Source: a virus
Lineage: Duplodnaviria; Heunggongvirae; Uroviricota; Caudoviricetes
IMG/VR virus record: IMGVR_UViG_648276671_000014
DNA: 24,740 nucleotides
Strand: one strand, 5' to 3'
Below the pieces are notes generated by a model. That model ran no database searches, was not told the DNA's origin, and saw only the letters and a list, made by a program, of their open reading frames with translations. Below, piece by piece: positions 4,202 through 13,344 of this stretch. The position numbers were made by a program, and so were the translations under genes. Within the stretch, counting starts at the first letter, position 1. Every line of letters begins with the position of its first letter.

Positions 4202-5055
4202 GCACCATCCTGAAATGGGCGGGAAATAAAACCGCCATTATGTCCGAACTGAAAAAACACCTTCCTGCTGGCCCGCGACTGGTTGAACCTTTCGCGGGTT
4301 CCTGTGCTGTGATGATGGCGACGGATTACCCCAGCTATCTGGTTGCTGATATTAATCCTGATTTAATCAACCTCTATAAAAAGATTGCCGCTGATTGCGA
4401 AGCGTTTATATCTCGTGCCAGAGCTTTATTTGAGGAAGCAAACAGGGAGGTGGCTTATTACAACATAAGGCAGGAGTTTAACTGCTCAACTGAAATTACT
4501 GACTTCATGAAAGCAGTATATTTCCTGTATCTCAATCGTCACGGTTACCGTGGGTTATGTCGCTATAACAAGAGCGGGCATTTCAACATTCCCTACGGTA
4601 ATTATAAAAATCCGTATTTCCCTGAAAAAGAAATTCGCGCATTTGCAGAGAAAGCCCAGCGAGCAACGTTTATCTGCGCCAGCTTTGATGAAACGCTGGC
4701 GATGCTGCAGGTGGGGGATGTGGTGTATTGCGATCCGCCTTATGACGGTACGTTTTCCGGCTATCACACTGACGGCTTCACTGAAGATGACCAGTATCAC
4801 CTGGCATCTGTTCTTGAATATCGATCATCAGAAGGTCATCCAGTCATTGTTTCTAACAGTGACACATCCCTGATCCGTTCGCTGTATCGAAATTTCACTC
4901 ACCACTACATCAAGGCAAAACGCAGCATCGGCGTGTCGGCTGGCGAGAGTAAATCTGCAACAGAAATCATTGCTGTTTCCGGGGCGCGCTGCTGGGTGGG
5001 ATTTGATCCTTCGTGTGGCGTGGATAGTTCTGCTGTGTACGAGGTGCGTATATGA
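4198..5055 (+). CDS. dam: DNA adenine methyltransferase (Dam, GATC-type, orphan)
   Basis: LKWAGNK, FAGSCAV (SAM-binding FxGxG) and catalytic DPPY are all present. ATGA overlap with the upstream stop. Start at ATG 4198, not the track's 4138. Confidence 0.9.
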
Positions 5056-7466
5056 GTCATGACGATATGAGCAACTCTAGCGGCTTTAACGAGGCCGCTG
5101 CAGCATTTTCATGGAACGGCCCGAAAAAGGCCATTAACCCTTATCTGGACCCGGCGGAAGTTGCGCCGGAGTCTGCACTTTCAAACCTGATCACTCTGTA
5201 CGCTGCCGATAATGAGCAGGAACAGCTGCGCCGCGATGCACTGAGTGAGCAGGTCTGGGAGCGTTATTTCTTTAATGAATCTCGTGATCCTGTCCAGCGC
5301 GAAATGGAGCAGGATAAGCTCATTAGCCGGGCAAAGCTGGCGCATGAACAGCAGCGTTTTAACCCGGACATGGTCATTCTGGCGGACGTCAGCGCCCAGC
5401 CCACCCATATTAGCAAGCCGCTGATGCAACGTATCGAATACTTCAGCAGCCTGGGCAGGCCAAAGGCTTATTCCCGCTATTTGCGTGAGACGATTAAGCC
5501 ATGTCTGGAGCGACTGGATTGTGTACGTGACAGTCAGCTGTCTGCTTCTTTCCGTTTTATGGCAAGCCATCAAGGGCTGGAGGGCCTGCTGATCCTGCCT
5601 GAAATGAGTCAGGATCAGGTGAAACGCCTGTCCACCCTGGTAGCTGCGCATATGAGCATGTGCCTTGATGCAGCTTGTGGCGATTTGTATGCCACCGATG
5701 ACGTTAAGCCAGAAGAAATCCGCAAGACATGGGAAAAGGTGGCGGCGGAAACCCTGCGTCTGGATGTCATCCCACCTGCGTTTGAGCAACTCCGTCGGAA
5801 AAGAAACCGCCGTAAACCCGTGCCCTATGAACTCATTCCGGGTTCGCTGGCGCGTATGTTGTGCGCCGACTGGTGGTATCGGAAATTATGGAAGATGCGT
5901 TGCGAATGGCGGGAAGAGCAGTTGCGTGCTGTCTGCCTGGTCAGCAAAAAAGCATCTCCCTATGTCAGCTATGAAGCCGTGATGCATAAACGTGAGCAGC
6001 GCCGTAAGTCGCTGGAGTTTTTCCGTTCTCATGAACTGGTGAACGAAGACGGCGACACGCTGGACATGGAGGATGTGGTAAACGCCAGCAGCAGCAACCC
6101 TGCGCATCGCCGCAATGAGATGATGGCCTGTGTTAAAGGTCTGGAGCTTATCGCGGAAATGCGCGGTGACTGCGCCGTTTTCTACACTATCACCTGTCCG
6201 TCACGTTTCCATTCCACGCTCAACAACGGCAGACCCAACCCAACCTGGACAAATGCGACGGTAAGACAAAGCAGCGATTATCTGGTCGGCATGTTTGCTG
6301 CATTTCGTAAGGCAATGCACAAAACCGGGTTGCGCTGGTATGGCGTACGGGTGGCTGAGCCGCACCATGACGGTACTGTGCACTGGCATCTCATGTGCTT
6401 CATGCGTAAAAAAGACCGCCGCGCCATCACTGCATTACTGCGTAAGTTTGCCATCCGTGTAGACCGCGAGGAGCTGGGCAACAATACGGGGCCACGCTTT
6501 AAGTCTGAGCTGATTAACCCGCGCAAAGGAACACCGACAAGCTACATCGCGAAATACATCAGTAAGAACATTGACGGGCGTGGTCTGGCTGGCGAGATCA
6601 GCAAGGAAACGGGTAAATCCCTGCGTGATAACGCCGAATACGTCAATGCCTGGGCGTCTCTGCATCGTGTTCAGCAGTTCCGCTTCTTTGGTATTCCGGG
6701 ACGTCAGGCTTACCGTGAACTTCGCTTGCTGGCTGGTCAGGCGGCAAGGCAACAGGGTGACAAAAAAGCAGGTGCGCCGATACTGGATGACCCGCGCCTT
6801 GATGCCATCCTGGCTGCTGCTGATGCTGGTTGTTTTGCCACCTACATCATGAAGCAGGGCGGCGTACTGGTTCCCCGTAAATATCACCTTATCAGAACCG
6901 CTTATGAAATCAACGAAGAGCCGACCGCCTATGGCGATCACGGCATTCGTATTTATGGCATCTGGTCACCCATTGCAGAGGGCAAGATCTGCACTCATGC
7001 AGTGAAGTGGAAAATGGTTCGTAAGGCCGTTGACGTTCAGGAGGCGGTAGCCGACCAGGGCGCTTGCGCCCCTTGGACTCGTGGCAATAACTGTCCCCTT
7101 GCTGAAAATTTGAACCAACAAGGGAAAGACAAATCAGCTGATGGGGATACCAGGACGGACATTACCCGCATGGATGACAAGGAGTTGCACGATTACCTGC
7201 ACAGTATGAGCAAAAAAGAGCGCCGGGAACTGGCTGCAAGGTTACGCCTGGTGAAACCGAAACGGCGTAAAGACTACAAACAGCGAATTACAGACCATCA
7301 GCGACAGCGGCTCGTCTATGAACTGAAGTCCAGAGGATTTGATGGCAGCGAGAAAGAGGTCGATTTACTCCTTCGCGGCGGCAGTATTCCGTCAGGAGCA
7401 GGCCTGCGTATCTTCTATCGGAACCAGCGTTTGCAGGAAGATGATAAGTGGCGAAACCTGTATTAA
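5052..7466 (+). CDS. A: Replication initiation endonuclease (P2 gpA family, rolling-circle HUH nuclease)
   Basis: 804 aa. HUH motif (VHWHLM) and paired tyrosines (SYIAKYISK) are characteristic of gpA. Position is after the early genes. Confidence 0.9.
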
Positions 7467-8322: not shown

Positions 8323-8538
8323 ATGTCAAGCATCGCCGCATTTAGCCTGGGTAACCCAGTTGAACGTCTGGCAAGGGTTCTTAAAGAGAACCAGGACAAA
8401 CTCAATCTTAGTAAAGATGGTTTTGTGTCCGTAGACTTGTCTAACAAAAGAGCAATGGATGCCATCAAGGCACAGATGGATAAGCTTGAAGGCATCAAAA
8501 CGAGCACTGTAAAAGAGAAAACTAATAGAACCAGATAA
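8323..8538 (+). CDS. Hypothetical small protein (71 aa), first gene of the AT-rich cargo cassette
   Basis: Strong SD GGGGGAG before ATG 8323. Stop TAA overlaps the next ATG (ATAATGG), indicating translational coupling. Confidence 0.6.
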   Translation: MSSIAAFSLGNPVERLARVLKENQDKLNLSKDGFVSVDLSNKRAMDAIKAQMDKLEGIKTSTVKEKTNRTR

Positions 8539-8738
8539 TGGCAACATTACTTTTAGCAGTGATTTTGGTTAGTGGTTTTATTTATGTAAACCTATCACTT
8601 TCAACAAGATACCGATATAAGCGTTCCAACGGCTGGGACGCTTATTTTTTGTGGCTGCCTGGGGTATCGTTTTTTTCTCCTTGGCGGTTTTTTCACCTTT
8701 ATTTTGAACGTCAGCGGAGGGTTTCGTTGGCTGGCTAA
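8538..8738 (+). CDS. N-terminal membrane segment ORF (66 aa), probably the 5' part of a frameshifted gene
   Basis: MATLLLAVILVSGFIYV is a TM helix. The frame leaves hydrophobic sequence after the T-runs at 8645-8693, while the +1 frame continues as TM-like sequence into ORF 8704-9378. Confidence 0.4.
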   Translation: MATLLLAVILVSGFIYVNLSLSTRYRYKRSNGWDAYFLWLPGVSFFSPWRFFHLYFERQRRVSLAG

Positions 8739-9378
8739 TGCCTTGAATCTAACACCTGACAGTTTTAATGGCATGTTGTCTTCATCGAAAGACAAACTTC
8801 AAAGAATAAATGAAATCAAACAGATAGCATGGGTTATGATTTCAATTGTTCTCGCTGCGATTTCAGGTTTTGGAAATAAGTTACGCACATCACGTGGAGA
8901 TCGTCGCTGGGATGCCTTAGCTAAAGCTGTGGGTAATAACGCTTTCGAATCATTACTCATGGAAGCGTCCGCAAGACAGTTTCCGATCATAGCAACTCTG
9001 TCGTCTCGCAAAATCTATGTTGGTCTTGTTACTTGTCCGGCGTTAGAAAACGGGCTTTCAGAACACCTTGAACTTCTCCCGATGTTAAGCGGATATCGGG
9101 ATAAAGATGATCTAACGATTAGTATCACGACTAACTATCACCAACATTATCTTGATAGTGGTGTGATAAGTGGAATGTCTCGGCTTAATATCGAAGATTT
9201 CCGTGTGCTCATACCAAAAGATGAGGTTGAAACAATTTCGTTTTTTGATACTGAGACATATAACAAATTTAAAGAAAATGAAGCCAGGGATAGAAAGAAC
9301 TGTCGAAAGATTGGTAGTAAAAGTGCATCTTCGCGCAGCAAGCGTGCAGCAGATGCTGAGTCAAATGATCGTGCATGA
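8704..9378 (+). CDS. Hypothetical membrane-associated protein (224 aa as listed; the frame is open back to 8590)
   Basis: The listed start is TTG with no ATG upstream in frame. Contains a TM helix (IAWVMISIVLAAISGFG) and a soluble C-terminal domain with a basic/acidic tail. AT-rich. Followed by a strong terminator. Confidence 0.55.
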   Translation: MNVSGGFRWLANALNLTPDSFNGMLSSSKDKLQRINEIKQIAWVMISIVLAAISGFGNKLRTSRGDRRWDALAKAVGNNAFESLLMEASARQFPIIATLSSRKIYVGLVTCPALENGLSEHLELLPMLSGYRDKDDLTISITTNYHQHYLDSGVISGMSRLNIEDFRVLIPKDEVETISFFDTETYNKFKENEARDRKNCRKIGSKSASSRSKRAADAESNDRA

Positions 9379-9473
9379 CTATGCTGCATGAGATCGCATG
9401 ATCGTTTGAGGATCGTTTTTGCTAAGGCCCGCCAGAACTGGCGGGCTTTTGCGTAGATCATGCACCTGCATGA
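9365..9473. repeat. Motif array next to cos: GCATGA x4 direct plus x1 inverted, and 5 GATC sites
   Basis: GCATGA at 9373, 9386, 9396 and 9468; TCATGC at 9458. GATC at 9367, 9392, 9400, 9411 and 9456. ATGATCGT is repeated at 9365 and 9398. Confidence 0.6.
9427..9450 (+). terminator. Rho-independent terminator
   Basis: GCCCGCCA (9427-9434), loop GAAC, TGGCGGGC (9439-9446), then TTTT. Lies 49 nt after the stop of ORF 8704-9378. Confidence 0.8.
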
Positions 9474-9495
9474 AAACTACTACATAAAGCGGGCA

Positions 9496-9514
9496 GGCGT
9501 GGCGGGGATACGAG
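9496..9514 (+). other. cos site core (19-nt cohesive-end sequence, P2/186 type)
   Basis: GGCGTGGCGGGGATACGAG followed by TGCGCG. As I recall, P2 is GGCGAGGCGGGGAAAGCAC followed by TGCGCGC and 186 is GGCGTGGCGGGGAAAGCAT, so the first 13 nt equal 186. Location between the A region and Q is as expected. Confidence 0.7.
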
Positions 9515-9538
9515 TGCGCGTAATAACTAATATTCCTA

Positions 9539-9567
9539 TTGACTTTCTATGATGCAATAGCTAATTT
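9539..9567 (+). promoter_or_regulatory. Candidate sigma70 promoter (TTGACT - 17 bp - TAATTT) for the tRNA-like leader and HEPN gene
   Basis: -35 at 9539-9544, 17-nt spacer, -10 at 9562-9567. The expected transcription start near 9574 coincides with the 5' end of the cloverleaf. Confidence 0.4.
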
Positions 9568-9573
9568 ATTTCT

Positions 9574-9657
9574 AGGCCTATAGTTTAATTTGGGAAAACG
9601 GCGGAGTATGATTTAGGTTATATATCCGTCATACCGGTTCGATTCCGGTTAGGCAAA
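9574..9657 (+). ncRNA. tRNA-like cloverleaf element (non-canonical: 19-nt anticodon-position loop, no CCA)
   Basis: Acceptor 9574-9580/9650-9656 pairs 5 of 7. TA at 9581-9582 (U8 A9). D stem GTTT/AAAC 9583-9586/9596-9599 with loop AATTTGGGA. Stem GCGGA/TCCGT 9601-9605/9625-9629. T stem ACCGG/CCGGT 9633-9637/9645-9649 with canonical loop TTCGATT. Confidence 0.4.
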
Positions 9658-9685
9658 GAGCATTTTAGAGTGTTCTTTGCCTAAC
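9648..9685 (+). promoter_or_regulatory. Long hairpin immediately 5' of the HEPN gene SD
   Basis: GTTAGGCAAAGA (9648-9659) pairs perfectly with TCTTTGCCTAAC (9674-9685). The stem extends with G-T, C-G, A-T, T-G and T-A to a TTAG tetraloop. No T-run follows. SD CAGGA at 9685-9689, ATG at 9698. The 5' arm is also the 3' acceptor strand of the tRNA-like fold. Confidence 0.6.
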
Positions 9686-9697
9686 AGGATACGTAAA

Positions 9698-10447
9698 ATG
9701 ACTGATGACGAGATTAAAAATATTTTCCATGCTCAAACTGATAATGTTAGAGAGCTTGAGAAAGTCTGGAAACAAATAGTCAAAGAAATTAATACTGCAT
9801 TACGAACAGATAATGCAGTCCAAGTTGCACTTAAAACCAAAATGCTAGGTTTGGTTTTTTGCGCTCTTGCCGAAGCTCAATTTTCAAAGTTGATCCACAC
9901 GCCCGGTCAATTTTCCCCTAATGAAATAGAACAGATTAAATATGCAGCTTCATCTAATGTCTCAGATGGATGGTTAAAGTGCATAAATTTGGCTACGAGA
10001 CGACTATCGAAAGGCACAAAGCATAATCATGTTCCTAATGTTATTCAGGAGCTTGAAAGACTAGTTGATGATTTTATAAAAGCGCCAAGTTTAATTAGAA
10101 ATAAAATTGCGCATGGACAATGGGTTGTCGCTCTTAATAGAAAGAATACACATGTGAACTCAGAAATGACACATACTTTGCGTAATTTGACAATAGTGGA
10201 ATTAACAAAGTTTAAAGATGCTTTCACGAGAATGTCGCGAATAGTCGAAGATATTATTAAATCTCCTAATAAAGCTCATTTGCGTGATTATTGGCCGCAG
10301 CTTGAAGAGTTTAGAGCAAAGCAAAAGGAAATGGATAGTTGGACTCTTGCTGAAAAAGTCTTCCAATTAAAAAAGAAATATAATTACTCATCTAATATGA
10401 GATGTGAATCATGCGGTCAGTTACATGTTGATAGAAATAAACAATGA
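9698..10447 (+). CDS. HEPN-domain protein (Rx4H motif RNKIAH), putative abortive-infection or toxin RNase
   Basis: 249 aa, all-helical-looking, with a single LIRNKIAHGQW motif (R-N-x3-H, classic HEPN active site). AT-rich cargo. ATG 9698 preferred because the track's TTG 9677 lies inside the hairpin. Confidence 0.75.
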   Translation: MTDDEIKNIFHAQTDNVRELEKVWKQIVKEINTALRTDNAVQVALKTKMLGLVFCALAEAQFSKLIHTPGQFSPNEIEQIKYAASSNVSDGWLKCINLATRRLSKGTKHNHVPNVIQELERLVDDFIKAPSLIRNKIAHGQWVVALNRKNTHVNSEMTHTLRNLTIVELTKFKDAFTRMSRIVEDIIKSPNKAHLRDYWPQLEEFRAKQKEMDSWTLAEKVFQLKKKYNYSSNMRCESCGQLHVDRNKQ

Positions 10448-10494
10448 TGATTATTATTTTGTGACACTTTCAATATTTTAATGCTTTATATATT

Positions 10495-10522
10495 AGCAAT
10501 GGTCATTAACATGACCATTGCT
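10495..10522. terminator. Perfect 12-bp hairpin between convergent HEPN and Q genes (possible bidirectional terminator)
   Basis: AGCAATGGTCAT, loop TAAC, ATGACCATTGCT. There is no clear T-run on either side, so the terminator function is uncertain. Confidence 0.45.
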
Positions 10523-10537
10523 ATGTGACCTAATATA

Positions 10538-11578
10538 TTAGTTATCTTCTGTCCTGAGCGAGTAAAAGCTAAAACGGAGAATTTCTTCACCAAGCCAGTT
10601 ATTTAGTTCCTGTAAACGTTTCTGCAGTGACATTAGTTCATTGCGTACAAAAACGCGACTAGCTTTCTCCACATCCCCAAATCCCCCAACATTATTTGGC
10701 ATTATCCCCATCATCTGTGGCGGCACGCGGTGCGCTGCCATCATGTCATCCCGACTCACGTTCTTGATATTAAGAAATTCATCCTTCGCCGCGACTTCTG
10801 ACAATGGGATGATCTGAAGCCCGTCCTTTTTGCCGTTAGGCGAGTACATAAACAGGTTGCGGAAGTTGCCTGGACCTTTGGCGCTTTTCATCGCGTTGCG
10901 GAGGTTGTTCACATCTTCCTGGTTCTGCGCGGCATCGGTCATGTACATGATGAAGCCTGCATGGCTGCCGTTGATGTAATACTTACGGCGGAACAGCGTG
11001 GCAGACTCGTTGAGCAGGGCGGATGGAATGGCAGAAAGATAGCCGGGCAGGCCGTAGATCTCCTGGTTGATGTCCGGTTCCATCAGATGAAAAATGCTGC
11101 CTTTCGTGAACTGATACGGCTGGGTTGTCATACCGTATTGCACAAACCAGTAGGTATCCAGGTCTAACCCGCGTCGGGTGTATTTTGCCAGCGCAGGCTC
11201 AAGGGCGATAACTTCACCGAATCGGTTCGTGCGTTTCTCCAGGTAGGCGTTACCAAATACCAGATAGTCCTGCACAAAACGCGAAAAAGCCTGCTGGCTG
11301 AGCAGCGGATGAGGGATATAGGTACTGGTCAGAATGTTGCACTTTACTGCAATCGGGGAACTGTGATGCACGGCGGCGCGGAAGGTGCGCGCCAGTCCGT
11401 TAAAGCTGACGGGCGGCTCATACCAACGGTCCATCTGTACGCATTCCACATAGTCCAGCAGTTCACGGCGGTCCAGAACAGGAACGGGATCGCCGAAGCT
11501 GAATGCTTCGGCTGTAGTTTGACTTTTAAGCTGGATCTGTTTCGTCGCCGCAGCTCGGTTCTTCTTACTCTTTCCCAT
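10538..11578 (-). CDS. Q: Portal protein (P2 gpQ)
   Basis: 346 aa, P2 Q-like in length and sequence. TGATG overlap with the P stop. Start taken at ATG 11578; the track's 11581 is TTG. Confidence 0.9.
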   Translation of the reverse strand: MGKSKKNRAAATKQIQLKSQTTAEAFSFGDPVPVLDRRELLDYVECVQMDRWYEPPVSFNGLARTFRAAVHHSSPIAVKCNILTSTYIPHPLLSQQAFSRFVQDYLVFGNAYLEKRTNRFGEVIALEPALAKYTRRGLDLDTYWFVQYGMTTQPYQFTKGSIFHLMEPDINQEIYGLPGYLSAIPSALLNESATLFRRKYYINGSHAGFIMYMTDAAQNQEDVNNLRNAMKSAKGPGNFRNLFMYSPNGKKDGLQIIPLSEVAAKDEFLNIKNVSRDDMMAAHRVPPQMMGIMPNNVGGFGDVEKASRVFVRNELMSLQKRLQELNNWLGEEILRFSFYSLRTEDN

Positions 11579-13344
11579 CAAAAAATCTCCACAATATTGC
11601 TGGTATTGGCGGATTCGCCCTGCAGCGGTTCGTTAAACAGTGCGTGCATCGTTGCCCATGCCAGATCGGCGTGGCTGGCTTCTTCGCTGCGGCTGGCTTC
11701 ATAGGTCGGGCGGTTGCCACTGGCGGTGGTGGCGCGACGGATTGCCATAAATGACTGCGCAATGTCGGTATGTCCGGCGTCAAACTCCAGACGGCGGTGG
11801 CTGATAATGTCGTAGGCCTTGAGTACCAGGGCGTTTTTAACGTTGGGGTTGTAGACAAACTCCCGGACGGCAGGAAAGAACGCTTTCACGTTCTCGTAAA
11901 CCCCGTGACCAACGCCGGTTGAGTCGATGCCGATGTAGGTCACGTTGTACTGCTCGGTCAGTTTTTTGATTGCGTCAGCCTGGGCGCGGAAGTCCATCCC
12001 GCGCCACTGGTGACGCTCAAGAATGCGAAACTTACCGCCCGGCACGGCTGGCGGTGCCACCACCACGCATCCGGCGCTGTCGCCGTTCTGCGTACCTTTT
12101 GCCGGGTCATAACCGATCCACACTTCGCGCCAGCCAAACGGGCGCAGGGCCAGAGCATGAAAGTCGGTCCAGACTTCCCAACTGTCCACCATGCACGCCT
12201 GCAGCTCGCTGAGCGGAAACACGGACGCGAGATCGTCCACAAACTCGCACATCAGCAGGTTCTGGTATTCGTCCAGGCTGTACTCCATGCGCAACTGGTC
12301 GAGGTCGAACAGGTTACAGCCGCCGCGCACCGCATCTTCCACAGTGACTATCTGGCGGTACTGCCCGTCTGCGCACAGCAGGCCGGGGGCCAGATTGCTG
12401 TGGGACAGGTCGATGTCCACCTTATCGGCTTTGTTGCGCCCACGATTGAACAGCGCACCGGACCAGAACGGATAAGCACTGTGAGTCAGGCTGGATGGCG
12501 TGGAAAAATAGGTTTGTCGCCATTTTTTGTGAATAGCCATCCCGGAAGCCACTTTGCGCAGCTCCTGGAATTTCGGTATCCAGAAATATTCATCCAGATA
12601 CAGGTTGCCGTGGTAACTCTGGGCCGTGCGGGCATTGGTGCCGAGGAAGTAAAGCGTGGCTCCGTTAGGAAGCACCATCGGATCGCCTTTTAGCTCTACC
12701 TCGACTTCTTTGGCGAAGTCGATGATGTACTGCTTAAAGACGTGAGCCTGTGCCTTACTGGCGGAAAGGAAAATCTGGTTACGTCCGGTAAGCAGGGCGT
12801 CAATCAGGGCTTCACGGGCAAAGTAAAAGGTCGCGCCGATCTGGCGTGACTTCAGCAGGTTGCGGATGCGGTTGGTTTTTCCGGCTTCCCACCAGTGGCG
12901 CTGGTAGTTGAACATGGAGGAATGGAAGATTTCTTCCAGTTTCTCAATCTGTTCATCGGTGAAAACATTCTTTTCCGGCTGACGGCGCGGGCCCTTATTG
13001 CGGTTGGCGACGTTAGGGTTTAAGTCAGCTTCGTTGCCGCCATTGTTAAACTTGCCGATCCGCGCGTGGCGCTCCGACTGGCGCGCCAGCAGGTCAATTT
13101 CTTTGAAATCTTTCCCTTCTTTATGCTCCTTCATGATGAGCTGGCAGTAGCGTGCGGCGGTGGTGAGCTGCATCTGATCCAGCGGCCCATAGTCACCCCA
13201 CTTGTCGCGTTTTTTCCAGCTGTGAACGGTTGCAACTTTCTCGCCCAGCATTTCAGCAATGCGGGCTACGCGGTATCCCTGAAAGTACAGCAGCATGGCC
13301 TGCCGACGGGGATCGAGATCTGCGGGTGTCAGTGTGGTGTTCAT
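11578..13344 (-). CDS. P: Terminase large (ATPase) subunit (P2 gpP)
   Basis: 588 aa. The N-terminus ...DPRRQAMLLYFQGYRVARIAEMLGEK..SWKKRDKW and KSRQIGATFYFA match the P2 gpP pattern. Confidence 0.92.
   Translation of the reverse strand: MNTTLTPADLDPRRQAMLLYFQGYRVARIAEMLGEKVATVHSWKKRDKWGDYGPLDQMQLTTAARYCQLIMKEHKEGKDFKEIDLLARQSERHARIGKFNNGGNEADLNPNVANRNKGPRRQPEKNVFTDEQIEKLEEIFHSSMFNYQRHWWEAGKTNRIRNLLKSRQIGATFYFAREALIDALLTGRNQIFLSASKAQAHVFKQYIIDFAKEVEVELKGDPMVLPNGATLYFLGTNARTAQSYHGNLYLDEYFWIPKFQELRKVASGMAIHKKWRQTYFSTPSSLTHSAYPFWSGALFNRGRNKADKVDIDLSHSNLAPGLLCADGQYRQIVTVEDAVRGGCNLFDLDQLRMEYSLDEYQNLLMCEFVDDLASVFPLSELQACMVDSWEVWTDFHALALRPFGWREVWIGYDPAKGTQNGDSAGCVVVAPPAVPGGKFRILERHQWRGMDFRAQADAIKKLTEQYNVTYIGIDSTGVGHGVYENVKAFFPAVREFVYNPNVKNALVLKAYDIISHRRLEFDAGHTDIAQSFMAIRRATTASGNRPTYEASRSEEASHADLAWATMHALFNEPLQGESANTSNIVEIF

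Follow-up and report, generated by a model that had tools for sequence, protein, structure and literature searches.

The AbiD/F systems combine an Abi_2 HEPN protein with a conserved non-coding RNA (ncRNA) encoded upstream, as in AbiF-RCd22 of C. difficile and the AbiF of Prevotellaceae, and have been proposed as ancestors of Cas13 (PMC12373285, PMC13064643). The AbiF ncRNA binds and blocks the HEPN active site, like the RNA of a type III toxin–antitoxin system (PMC12373285, PMC13064643). For AbiD1 of L. lactis, the account of Bidnenko 2009 given in PMC13064643 describes an mRNA leader that holds down translation of the HEPN Abi protein and a phage protein that turns translation on by binding to the mRNA. 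In the present paper we describe a cassette in a 24740-nt stretch of viral DNA (IMG/VR record IMGVR_UViG_648276671_000014; hereafter the window, meaning the whole stretch analysed), which is a P2-like prophage. The cassette consists of a predicted promoter, an RNA leader with the shape of a transfer RNA (tRNA) and a gene for a protein with a HEPN-type motif. A preliminary description, made from the letters of the window, had drawn attention to this arrangement.

AbiF with its upstream ncRNA is the closest known system. In both cases a single HEPN-type protein is preceded immediately, on the same strand, by an obligatory structured ncRNA, conservation is higher in the upstream RNA than in the gene, and carriage on prophages is frequent. 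The two differ in both protein and RNA. The cassette protein has no match to Abi_2 (at E≤10 for the window protein and at E≤0.1 for sets of 34 and 47 relatives), the abiF motif of Rfam was not matched at E≤10 in the window or at E≤0.01 in 14 loci, and the cassette RNA is a complete tRNA-shaped cloverleaf with a second, exclusive fold that sequesters the Shine–Dalgarno (SD) sequence. AbiD1 likewise differs from the cassette in protein and RNA, and tRNA mimicry is not reported for it in the account mentioned above.

The canonical type III systems ToxIN, CptIN and TenpIN comprise an endoribonuclease-type toxin and an RNA antidote encoded upstream, have a role in abortive infection and are carried by mobile elements. 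By analogy, the cassette would resemble them in its ribonuclease (RNase)-type protein, in the upstream position of its RNA and in its carriage on mobile elements. Tandem repeats were absent from 9300–10600 as analysed by TRF, no terminator was found between the leader and the open reading frame (ORF), and the cassette protein had no match to the ToxN/AbiQ families. The HEPN anticodon nucleases PrrC and RloC, like HEPN effectors that cut tRNA, possess an Rx4-6H nuclease motif and act in phage defence through tRNA, and they suggest why a tRNA-shaped RNA lacking the anticodon loop could inhibit. They have no sequence relationship with the cassette protein, which is without an ATPase domain, and they are restrained by proteins (e.g. 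EcoprrI), not by RNA. Parts of tRNA are also copied, to engage tRNA-binding proteins, by the thrS mRNA operator, the tRNA-like domain of transfer-messenger RNA (tmRNA), the bacterial Y RNA YrlA and viral tRNA-like structures. The thrS operator mimics the anticodon arm, precisely the part that is missing in the cassette leader; tmRNA and YrlA carry different further domains and go with different genes; and none of these RNAs is known to be the +1 leader of a HEPN gene or to alternate with an SD-sequestering helix.

The RNA–gene pair appears to be undescribed, in agreement with the preliminary description, which had not recognized the arrangement. The RNA belongs to no described family of Rfam 15, the protein to none in Pfam, NCBIfam, PADLOC (no model of which matches it) or the PDB, and full-text literature searches, outside subscription-only papers, gave no description of the pairing.

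The tRNA-shaped leader and its gene

The features of the leader and gene in the window are listed below. The tRNA-like domain was assigned from a match to the covariance model R1 (built from the family alignment A3, with the window excluded), a cloverleaf parse and covariation in the stems.

9539–9567, plus strand: predicted sigma-70 promoter (−35 box TTGACT at 9539–9544, 17-nt spacer, −10 box TAATTT at 9562–9567)
9574–9656, plus strand: tRNA-like domain
9576–9580 with 9650–9654, plus strand: acceptor of 5 bp, with tRNA positions 1 and 2 unpaired
9581, plus strand: U8
9583–9599, plus strand: D arm, with A14 and G18 G19
9600–9630, plus strand: capped variable arm replacing the anticodon arm, folding with a 4-nt loop
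9633–9649, plus strand: T arm, loop TTCGATT
9655–9658, plus strand: conserved AAAG after the acceptor
9698–10447, plus strand: ORF of 249 amino acids (aa) with the HEPN-type motif R134-N-K-I-A-H139 (codons 10097–10114)

The cloverleaf of the window starts at 9574 with the D arm, the TTCGATT T arm and the five acceptor pairs that had been recognized at the outset; it keeps all the universal core nucleotides of tRNA and encodes no CCA. What had been taken for a 19-nt loop is not a loop, as the arm at the anticodon position extends to 13 bp and is closed by 4 nt. With a capped stem replacing the anticodon loop and with no CCA, the RNA is predicted to be incapable of decoding. R1 matched the window at 9574–9660 with 66.2 bits (E 4e-19), and with the filters off it gave no other significant match in the window (next best E 0.25). 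Folding of 9574–9700, which the preliminary description had suggested, revealed a strong structure with a z-score of −5.8 compared with shuffles. The ARAGORN search suggested at the same time gave a divided answer: the standard run on the window reported neither a tRNA nor a tmRNA, and a local run permitting introns called a 'tRNA-Tyr(ata)' with a 12-nt intron. In Rfam 15 the sole match with E<0.1 was a partial and sub-threshold match to beta_tmRNA (24 bits, gathering score 84), which covers the T arm and the following hairpin of the two-piece tmRNA and is explained by the tRNA shape that the leader shares with the tRNA-like domain of tmRNA. A tmRNA is not indicated, as beta_tmRNA matches in the window and family loci reach 24–27 bits against the same gathering score of 84.

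To describe the family, 95 loci were fetched from species-representative genomes and viral contigs, covering Pseudomonadota, Bacteroidota, Bacillota, Acidobacteriota, Cyanobacteriota, Myxococcota, Planctomycetota, Nitrospirota, Chloroflexota and Campylobacterota, plus one candidate-phylum genome. The T-loop motif GTTCRANNC was present within 300 nt upstream of the start codon in 90/90 loci for which 60 nt or more of upstream sequence was available, against a chance expectation, by our own estimate, of ~0.03 per locus. It was mostly located 30–90 nt upstream, and ~150–170 nt upstream in the most divergent relatives. Alignment A3, made with MAFFT from 82 elements with the window left out, showed 96.6% pairing of the acceptor (positions 3–7 with 66–70), with 20–40 double substitutions per pair, and pairing of 97% and 100% for the D stem and T stem respectively. 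The cloverleaf contained 319 double changes compared with 93±13 in shuffles, a value matched by 0/500 shuffles, and the pairing fell to 46–57% when the 3′ partners were slid by one column. Pair counts on the R1-based alignment agreed with those on A3.

The canonical core and elbow of tRNA are thus present in the family together with the D and T stems: U8, A14, T54, T55 (Psi55), C56 and A58 are invariant in 82/82 sequences, and G18 G19 are found in 81/82. The canonical 7-bp acceptor with discriminator and CCA is not. Positions 1 and 2 are unpaired in 36/38 and 30/38 sequences respectively, and NCCA is replaced, in most lineages, by AAAG. This AAAG (positions 71–74; 9655–9658 in the window) is conserved in sequence across distant classes (82%, 85%, 79% and 73%) and could mark a cleavage or recognition site. 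The arm at the anticodon position varies from ~4 to 22 bp and forms a capped hairpin in 74/75 distinct sequences, with loops of 3–4 nt in 59/75 and of 7 nt in 1/75. No 7-nt anticodon loop with a consistent anticodon was found, and the 'anticodons' that ARAGORN can be forced to report vary by locus. Two loci attain the Rfam tRNA gathering score. Comparison of the window with the locus L081, which has a protein of 74% identity, showed that the leader is 96% identical over the 5′ 26 nt through the D arm and ~98% identical from the T arm to the SD sequence, whereas identity falls to 71.5% in the ORF DNA and to 63% in the variable arm, whose base pairing is kept.

The promoter TTGACT-17-TAATTT is present where the preliminary description had placed it, and its −10 box is 6 nt from A9574, the nucleotide at tRNA position 1. 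The TAATTT of the window is weak (3/6 consensus positions), and the promoter was therefore not listed by a simple consensus scan. TTGACA-like and TAnAAT boxes are conserved upstream of position 1 in homologous loci. The −10 box ends 6 nt short of position 1 in 33 of these, and the geometry of the window recurs in L081 and most Proteobacterial loci. Bacteroidota loci have a phylum-type TAnnTTTG box instead, 4–7 nt upstream of position 1. As the promoter type tracks the host and the distance to the cloverleaf is fixed, we infer that the RNA begins at tRNA position 1, which predicts a transcript start at or near A9574 in the window. Such a start would leave no 5′ leader for RNase P to remove, and the role as an RNase P module that had been considered for the leader is thus unlikely.

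The RNA is strictly linked to this gene. Over 795 kb of loci R1 gave 92 matches, all but three immediately upstream of the gene, and there was no protein-coding neighbour conserved across the loci. A metagenome scan with a D-loop/T-loop DNA pattern, which also caught genuine tRNAs and tests exclusivity only within the hairpin-bearing class, yielded 121 loci. A family ORF followed in 38 of them, with the hairpin described below in 38/38; the others were 54 ordinary tRNAs, 11 loci too short to judge and 18 miscellaneous ones. Two further kinds of tRNA-like element were seen beside other genes. In L126:1300–1700 (metagenome contig JQIA01015925.1), another RNA has the same GTCTAATTTGGTAAGAC D arm plus a T arm and lies between the two halves of a long-range complementary pair (TTCTTTAATAAAGAACAC ... 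GTGTTCTTTAATAAGGG). The ORF that comes next, of ~120 aa, is unrelated, and the two may represent a different pairing of a tRNA-like RNA with a gene. In L135:644–900 (minus strand) and L137, two tandem tRNA-like elements occur, one with a D arm of class-A type and the next with the GGTGTAATGG D arm of the most divergent relatives, and an unrelated ORF follows; this tandem may be a phage tRNA cluster.

The 249-aa ORF starting at ATG 9698 and its R-N-x3-H motif, located at residues 134–139, are as first described. In an alignment of 47 relatives reaching down to 18% identity, invariance is confined to R134 and N135, and conservation of 90% or more is seen at A138, H139, G140, Q141, N16, E59, W92 and N147; no other feature of the family is conserved as strongly as R-N-x3-H. 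The motif has the form HEPN Rx4-6H with a polar residue after the R, and R-N-x-x-A-H is typical of HEPN RNases. An AlphaFold2 model of the protein is confident and all-helical, with a predicted local distance difference test (pLDDT) score of 89. Sub-threshold Pfam matches to HEPN families recurred (HEPN_Swt1, AbiU2, RiboL-PSP and MAE_28990; E 0.002–0.07). No significant profile match to a curated HEPN family was obtained for the window protein or its relatives, and no significant match was obtained in fold and PDB-sequence searches. The earlier assignment to HEPN thus depends on the invariant motif, in a protein modelled as all-helical, and on the recurring sub-threshold Pfam matches, and we regard a HEPN-type RNase as probable.

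The sole listing of the protein in PHROGs is phrog_12663 (unknown function). A word-indexed search found 160 relatives, and an exhaustive profile search found 434 clusters (50% identity) among 1.84 billion representatives, showing a rare, single-domain family of mostly ~230–250 aa with no named members. Matches to Pfam IMEF_Flp in 28/34 close relatives (best E 1.9e-5) were judged to be compositional or helical noise and were gone in a more diverse set.

A competing hairpin and the Shine–Dalgarno sequence

The 3′ part of the cloverleaf is also part of a second structure, which reaches the ribosome-binding site of the gene.

9644–9689, plus strand: alternative long hairpin (arms 9644–9662 and 9671–9689; 19-nt inverted repeat, 89% complementary)
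9686–9689, plus strand: SD sequence AGGA, 8 nt before the ATG (9698)

The 5′ arm of the hairpin consists of the last T-loop base, the 3′ strand of the T stem, the 3′ strand of the acceptor and AAAGAGCA, and its 3′ arm terminates in the SD sequence. Because the 5′ arm reuses their 3′ strands, the hairpin excludes the T stem and the acceptor stem. In the hairpin state of the window, AGGA at 9686–9689 pairs with UCC of the T arm (9644–9646), and in the tRNA state it is free. The preliminary description had correctly seen that the 3′ strand of the acceptor is reused; it had the hairpin abutting the SD sequence, which understates the pairing, and it overlooked the cloverleaf and hairpin as alternative selected folds with SD sequestration.

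Covariation in the hairpin was analysed using A2, an independent alignment of 38 whole leaders. RNAalifold chose the hairpin, with compensatory changes at 17/21 pairs; the hairpin was 92.6% paired and had 160 double changes compared with 36±8 in shuffles. There were 19 distinct acceptor 5′ pentamers among the 38 sequences, and the pentamer in the 3′ arm of the hairpin was the same as the acceptor 5′ pentamer in 19/38 and had one difference, mostly wobble-compatible, in 16/38. Since the shared strand covaries with both of its partners, the leader is a two-state RNA under selection for both pairings, and the alignments indicate that the two folds are mutually exclusive. Leader and hairpin are conserved with compensatory changes upstream of the homologous genes, the leader before every one examined, which was the comparison that the preliminary description had proposed.

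In minimum-energy folds the helix extends outward via the 3′ strand of the T stem and often into the T loop, and the T-arm UUCC pairs with GGA/GGAG of the ribosome-binding site. The helix end and the start codon are separated by a median of 8 nt (29 loci), and by 3 nt in Shewanella, Neptunomonas and a Thiohalomonadales genome, a gammaproteobacterial group in which CCUUGGAUUGGA is nearly fully complementary to UUCGAUUCCGGG. Formation of the T stem and acceptor would release the SD segment, and the T arm would thus act as an anti-SD sequence. The features typical of a riboswitch, two exclusive and conserved folds that share a strand and of which one sequesters the SD sequence, are found except in ~17 loci without the hairpin. 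Computed energies for the window are −45.0 kcal/mol (hairpin form) and −34.1 kcal/mol (tRNA form), and across 16 loci the hairpin is favoured by 8–20 kcal/mol. For a 94-nt nascent transcript, the minimum-energy fold is the full cloverleaf with 14/14 pairs, and the computed strand-displacement barrier from the tRNA form to the hairpin is ~4.5 kcal/mol. A reading of the hairpin as a terminator or attenuator was excluded, as no T-run follows it in the window or relatives.

Prophage setting and neighbouring genes

The cassette is inserted between gpA and the portal gene, in the cos-proximal gpA–gpQ interval. This is the interval of P2 in which old and tin are found, and its role as a hotspot of anti-phage cargo has been documented (PMC9122126). 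The flanking ORFs and a repeat downstream of the cassette are as follows.

5052–7466: ORF of the gpA-type origin nickase
10494–10523: perfect 13-bp inverted repeat with a 4-nt loop, TAGCAATGGTCAT-TAAC-ATGACCATTGCTA, read from the sequence
10538–11581, minus strand: portal ORF
11578–13344, minus strand: large terminase ORF

DNA similarity to other P2-like phages and E. coli prophages ends at ~9520–9538, just before the promoter, indicating that promoter, leader and ORF form one inserted module. Its location, a defence hotspot on a mobile element, is typical of anti-phage systems. An identical protein is encoded in 139 blocks of a public assembly collection, directly beside the portal gene in 5/5 places examined and with differing left-hand cargo; it was not found in 50697 GenBank phage records or in 5426 complete E. 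coli genomes. The repeat at 10494–10523 lies between the stop codon of the HEPN gene and the convergent portal gene and has no T-run. It is probably a shared 3′ end or a terminator-like hairpin closing the cassette, and may be a bidirectional 3′-end element; the cos region of P2-like phages is expected near this position.

On the left-hand side, a GC-rich hairpin at 9427–9450 (GCCCGCCAG-AA-CTGGCGGGC, then TTTT) resembles a terminator closing the upstream operon. Its position is within the DNA that is still common to P2-like phages, just before the cassette-specific DNA, and it was not listed by a simple terminator scan. The neighbouring cargo gene (phrog_3630, unknown function; 8538–9378) is divided into two ORFs, 8538–8738 and 8704–9378. 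In L219, an otherwise near-identical prophage, this gene is intact (280 aa), and compared with it the window is missing two single T bases at ~8644 and ~8670. The split gene is either a pseudogene or the result of homopolymer sequencing errors.

Elsewhere in the family the cassette has neighbourhoods typical of defence genes. In Edwardsiella it is carried by a lambdoid prophage beside a pair of reverse transcriptase and SMC-like ATPase genes, in Salinivibrio it adjoins a reverse transcriptase and insertion sequence (IS) elements, and in Variovorax it adjoins an S8 peptidase with an AAA ATPase. In the Edwardsiella tarda prophage L222 (~9000–12400), the genes directly downstream encode a reverse transcriptase, an SMC/AAA_15 ATPase and a 243-aa protein (retron- or DRT-like), and a caspase-like Peptidase_C14 gene lies upstream of the cassette, making a small defence cluster.

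Possible functions of the cassette

The explanation that we favour, with a probability of roughly 0.55, is that the leader gates translation of the HEPN-type RNase, with its tRNA state as a binding platform, as part of an abortive-infection or toxin–antitoxin type of defence. The cassette would be a self-contained RNA-plus-protein unit that a P2-like prophage carries as cargo in its defence hotspot, and the cassette's own promoter would start the RNA at the first nucleotide of the tRNA-shaped domain. On the nascent chain the cloverleaf could fold first, with the hairpin as the thermodynamic sink; the SD sequence would be free in the tRNA fold and buried in the hairpin fold, where the T arm would serve as anti-SD sequence. 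With the hairpin as sink, the tRNA state would persist only if held by a partner that recognizes the tRNA shape. This partner may be the HEPN protein itself, to which the RNA would be an antidote or a non-cleavable substrate decoy, by analogy with AbiF; alternatively it may be a trigger factor made during infection, as phage Orf1 is for the AbiD1 mRNA. The leader would probably neutralize the RNase as well as gate its translation, and the outcome would be a defence of abortive-infection or toxin–antitoxin type.

Several points weigh against this explanation. First, ~17 loci with a GGGGG/CCCCC acceptor, from Bacteroidota, Pantoea, Burkholderia, cyanobacteria, Myxococcota, Planctomycetota and others, keep the tRNA-like domain and have neither a competing hairpin nor an evident SD sequence, and their minimum-energy fold is the cloverleaf. 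Because of these loci, SD gating is not the universal function, whereas the tRNA shape beside the gene is universal; the SD-sequestering switch is a widespread addition and not obligatory. Secondly, in one Bacteroidota subclade three of the loci parsed (L045, L071 and L080) have a decayed acceptor, with only 3 or 4 of the 5 pairs left, and keep the hairpin. Thirdly, the complementarity of the SD sequence to the T-arm UUCC is partly automatic, and the part of the helix that pairs with the SD sequence is unable to show covariation because the T loop is invariant. Fourthly, with a hairpin that is energetically favoured and a low computed barrier, the tRNA state should be transient and short-lived unless tertiary contacts or a protein partner hold the fold. 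Finally, binding of the HEPN protein that stabilized the SD-open state would create a positive feedback, which is awkward for a toxin. An interpretation of the hairpin-less class as SD-independent initiation in Bacteroidota was ruled out, as Pantoea, Burkholderia, cyanobacteria and Planctomycetota have members of this class too, and hairpins are present in other Bacteroidota loci.

The strongest alternative, somewhat unlikely in our judgement, is a toxin–antitoxin pair in the style of type III, in which the leader would be cut from the mRNA and the freed, stable tRNA-shaped RNA would block the HEPN protein as a non-cleavable substrate mimic. The cut could be made by the HEPN RNase itself, by RNase III on the long duplex, by RNase E or by RNase Z, and the hairpin would be only a processing or stability element. 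The single protein with an obligatory RNA and no protein partner fits such a pair, as do the absence of an anticodon loop, by which an anticodon nuclease could bind without cutting, the conserved AAAG just 3′ of the acceptor, the retention of the tRNA-like domain by the hairpin-less loci, and the precedent of AbiF. However, the tandem repeats and the terminator between RNA and ORF that mark ToxIN-type loci are both absent, a single-copy leader would have to outcompete the cellular tRNA pool, and it would be left unexplained why the 3′ arm of the hairpin tracks the acceptor strand and reaches the SD sequence. This alternative overlaps with translational gating and does not exclude it, and the antitoxin, decoy and RNase P roles considered in the preliminary description are not distinguishable by computation.

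Less likely still is that the leader serves purely as bait, with a tRNA-binding factor that the phage encodes or releases (either an anti-defence protein or an enzyme of modification, repair or processing) locking the tRNA fold, freeing the SD sequence and switching on translation of the toxin. The leader is built like a riboswitch, combining a structured domain for sensing with a switching strand common to both folds and a helix that sequesters the SD sequence; the hairpin as ground state would set the default to OFF; AbiD1 provides a precedent for a phage protein that binds an mRNA and activates its translation; and the cassette resides in a defence hotspot. Nevertheless, a candidate ligand is lacking, the idea is entirely inferential, and the hairpin-less loci have no expression platform.

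We consider it improbable that the element is mainly an mRNA processing or stability signal read by tRNA enzymes of the host (RNase P, RNase Z, RNase E or the CCA-adding enzyme) which sets the half-life of the mRNA or uncouples the leader and has no specific link to HEPN. The elbow and the acceptor–T minihelix, which are the conserved parts, are indeed those recognized by these enzymes, but the predicted start at position 1 gives RNase P nothing to remove, the acceptor is of only 5 bp without CCA, the element occurs only with this protein family in the sequence searched, and the leader is conserved more strongly than the ORF. A real but odd tRNA gene, or the decayed host tRNA or att remnant lying upstream by chance that the preliminary description had held in view, can be dismissed, since against the many copies called by relaxed ARAGORN and the two loci at the Rfam tRNA gathering score stand 'anticodons' that vary by locus, loops of 3–4 nt where an anticodon loop should be, a 5-bp acceptor with no CCA, the negative standard ARAGORN run, and a position fixed relative to promoter and ORF across at least ten phyla with strong covariation.

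More tentatively, and with the balance of our judgement on the doubtful side, the 5′ end of a toxin mRNA may form a switch that responds to a macromolecule and senses it through the tRNA mimic. The choice between the closed hairpin, with its buried SD sequence, and the open tRNA fold would be made by whichever partner recognizes the tRNA shape, be it the HEPN RNase or a tRNA-handling factor appearing in the course of phage infection. The RNA would be bait, gatekeeper of translation and possibly antidote, and the cassette would represent a previously unrecognized class of RNA–protein immune module. If so, an RNA family, a HEPN family and a regulatory logic, all of them new, would have spread horizontally across more than ten phyla.

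If the explanation favoured here is correct, this would be the second independent case, after the AbiF/Cas13 lineage, of a HEPN nuclease that has co-evolved with a dedicated structured RNA, and the partner RNA would be a copy of the most abundant structured RNA of the cell. The leader would be a natural and compact (~115 nt) tRNA-shaped translational switch, and with both states defined by covariation, compensatory mutagenesis can be designed directly. The covariance model R1 annotates an RNA that gene finders now miss or perhaps miscall as an odd tRNA. Recognition of tRNA would then be either the activity or the trigger of a new family of defence systems in the P2 hotspot.

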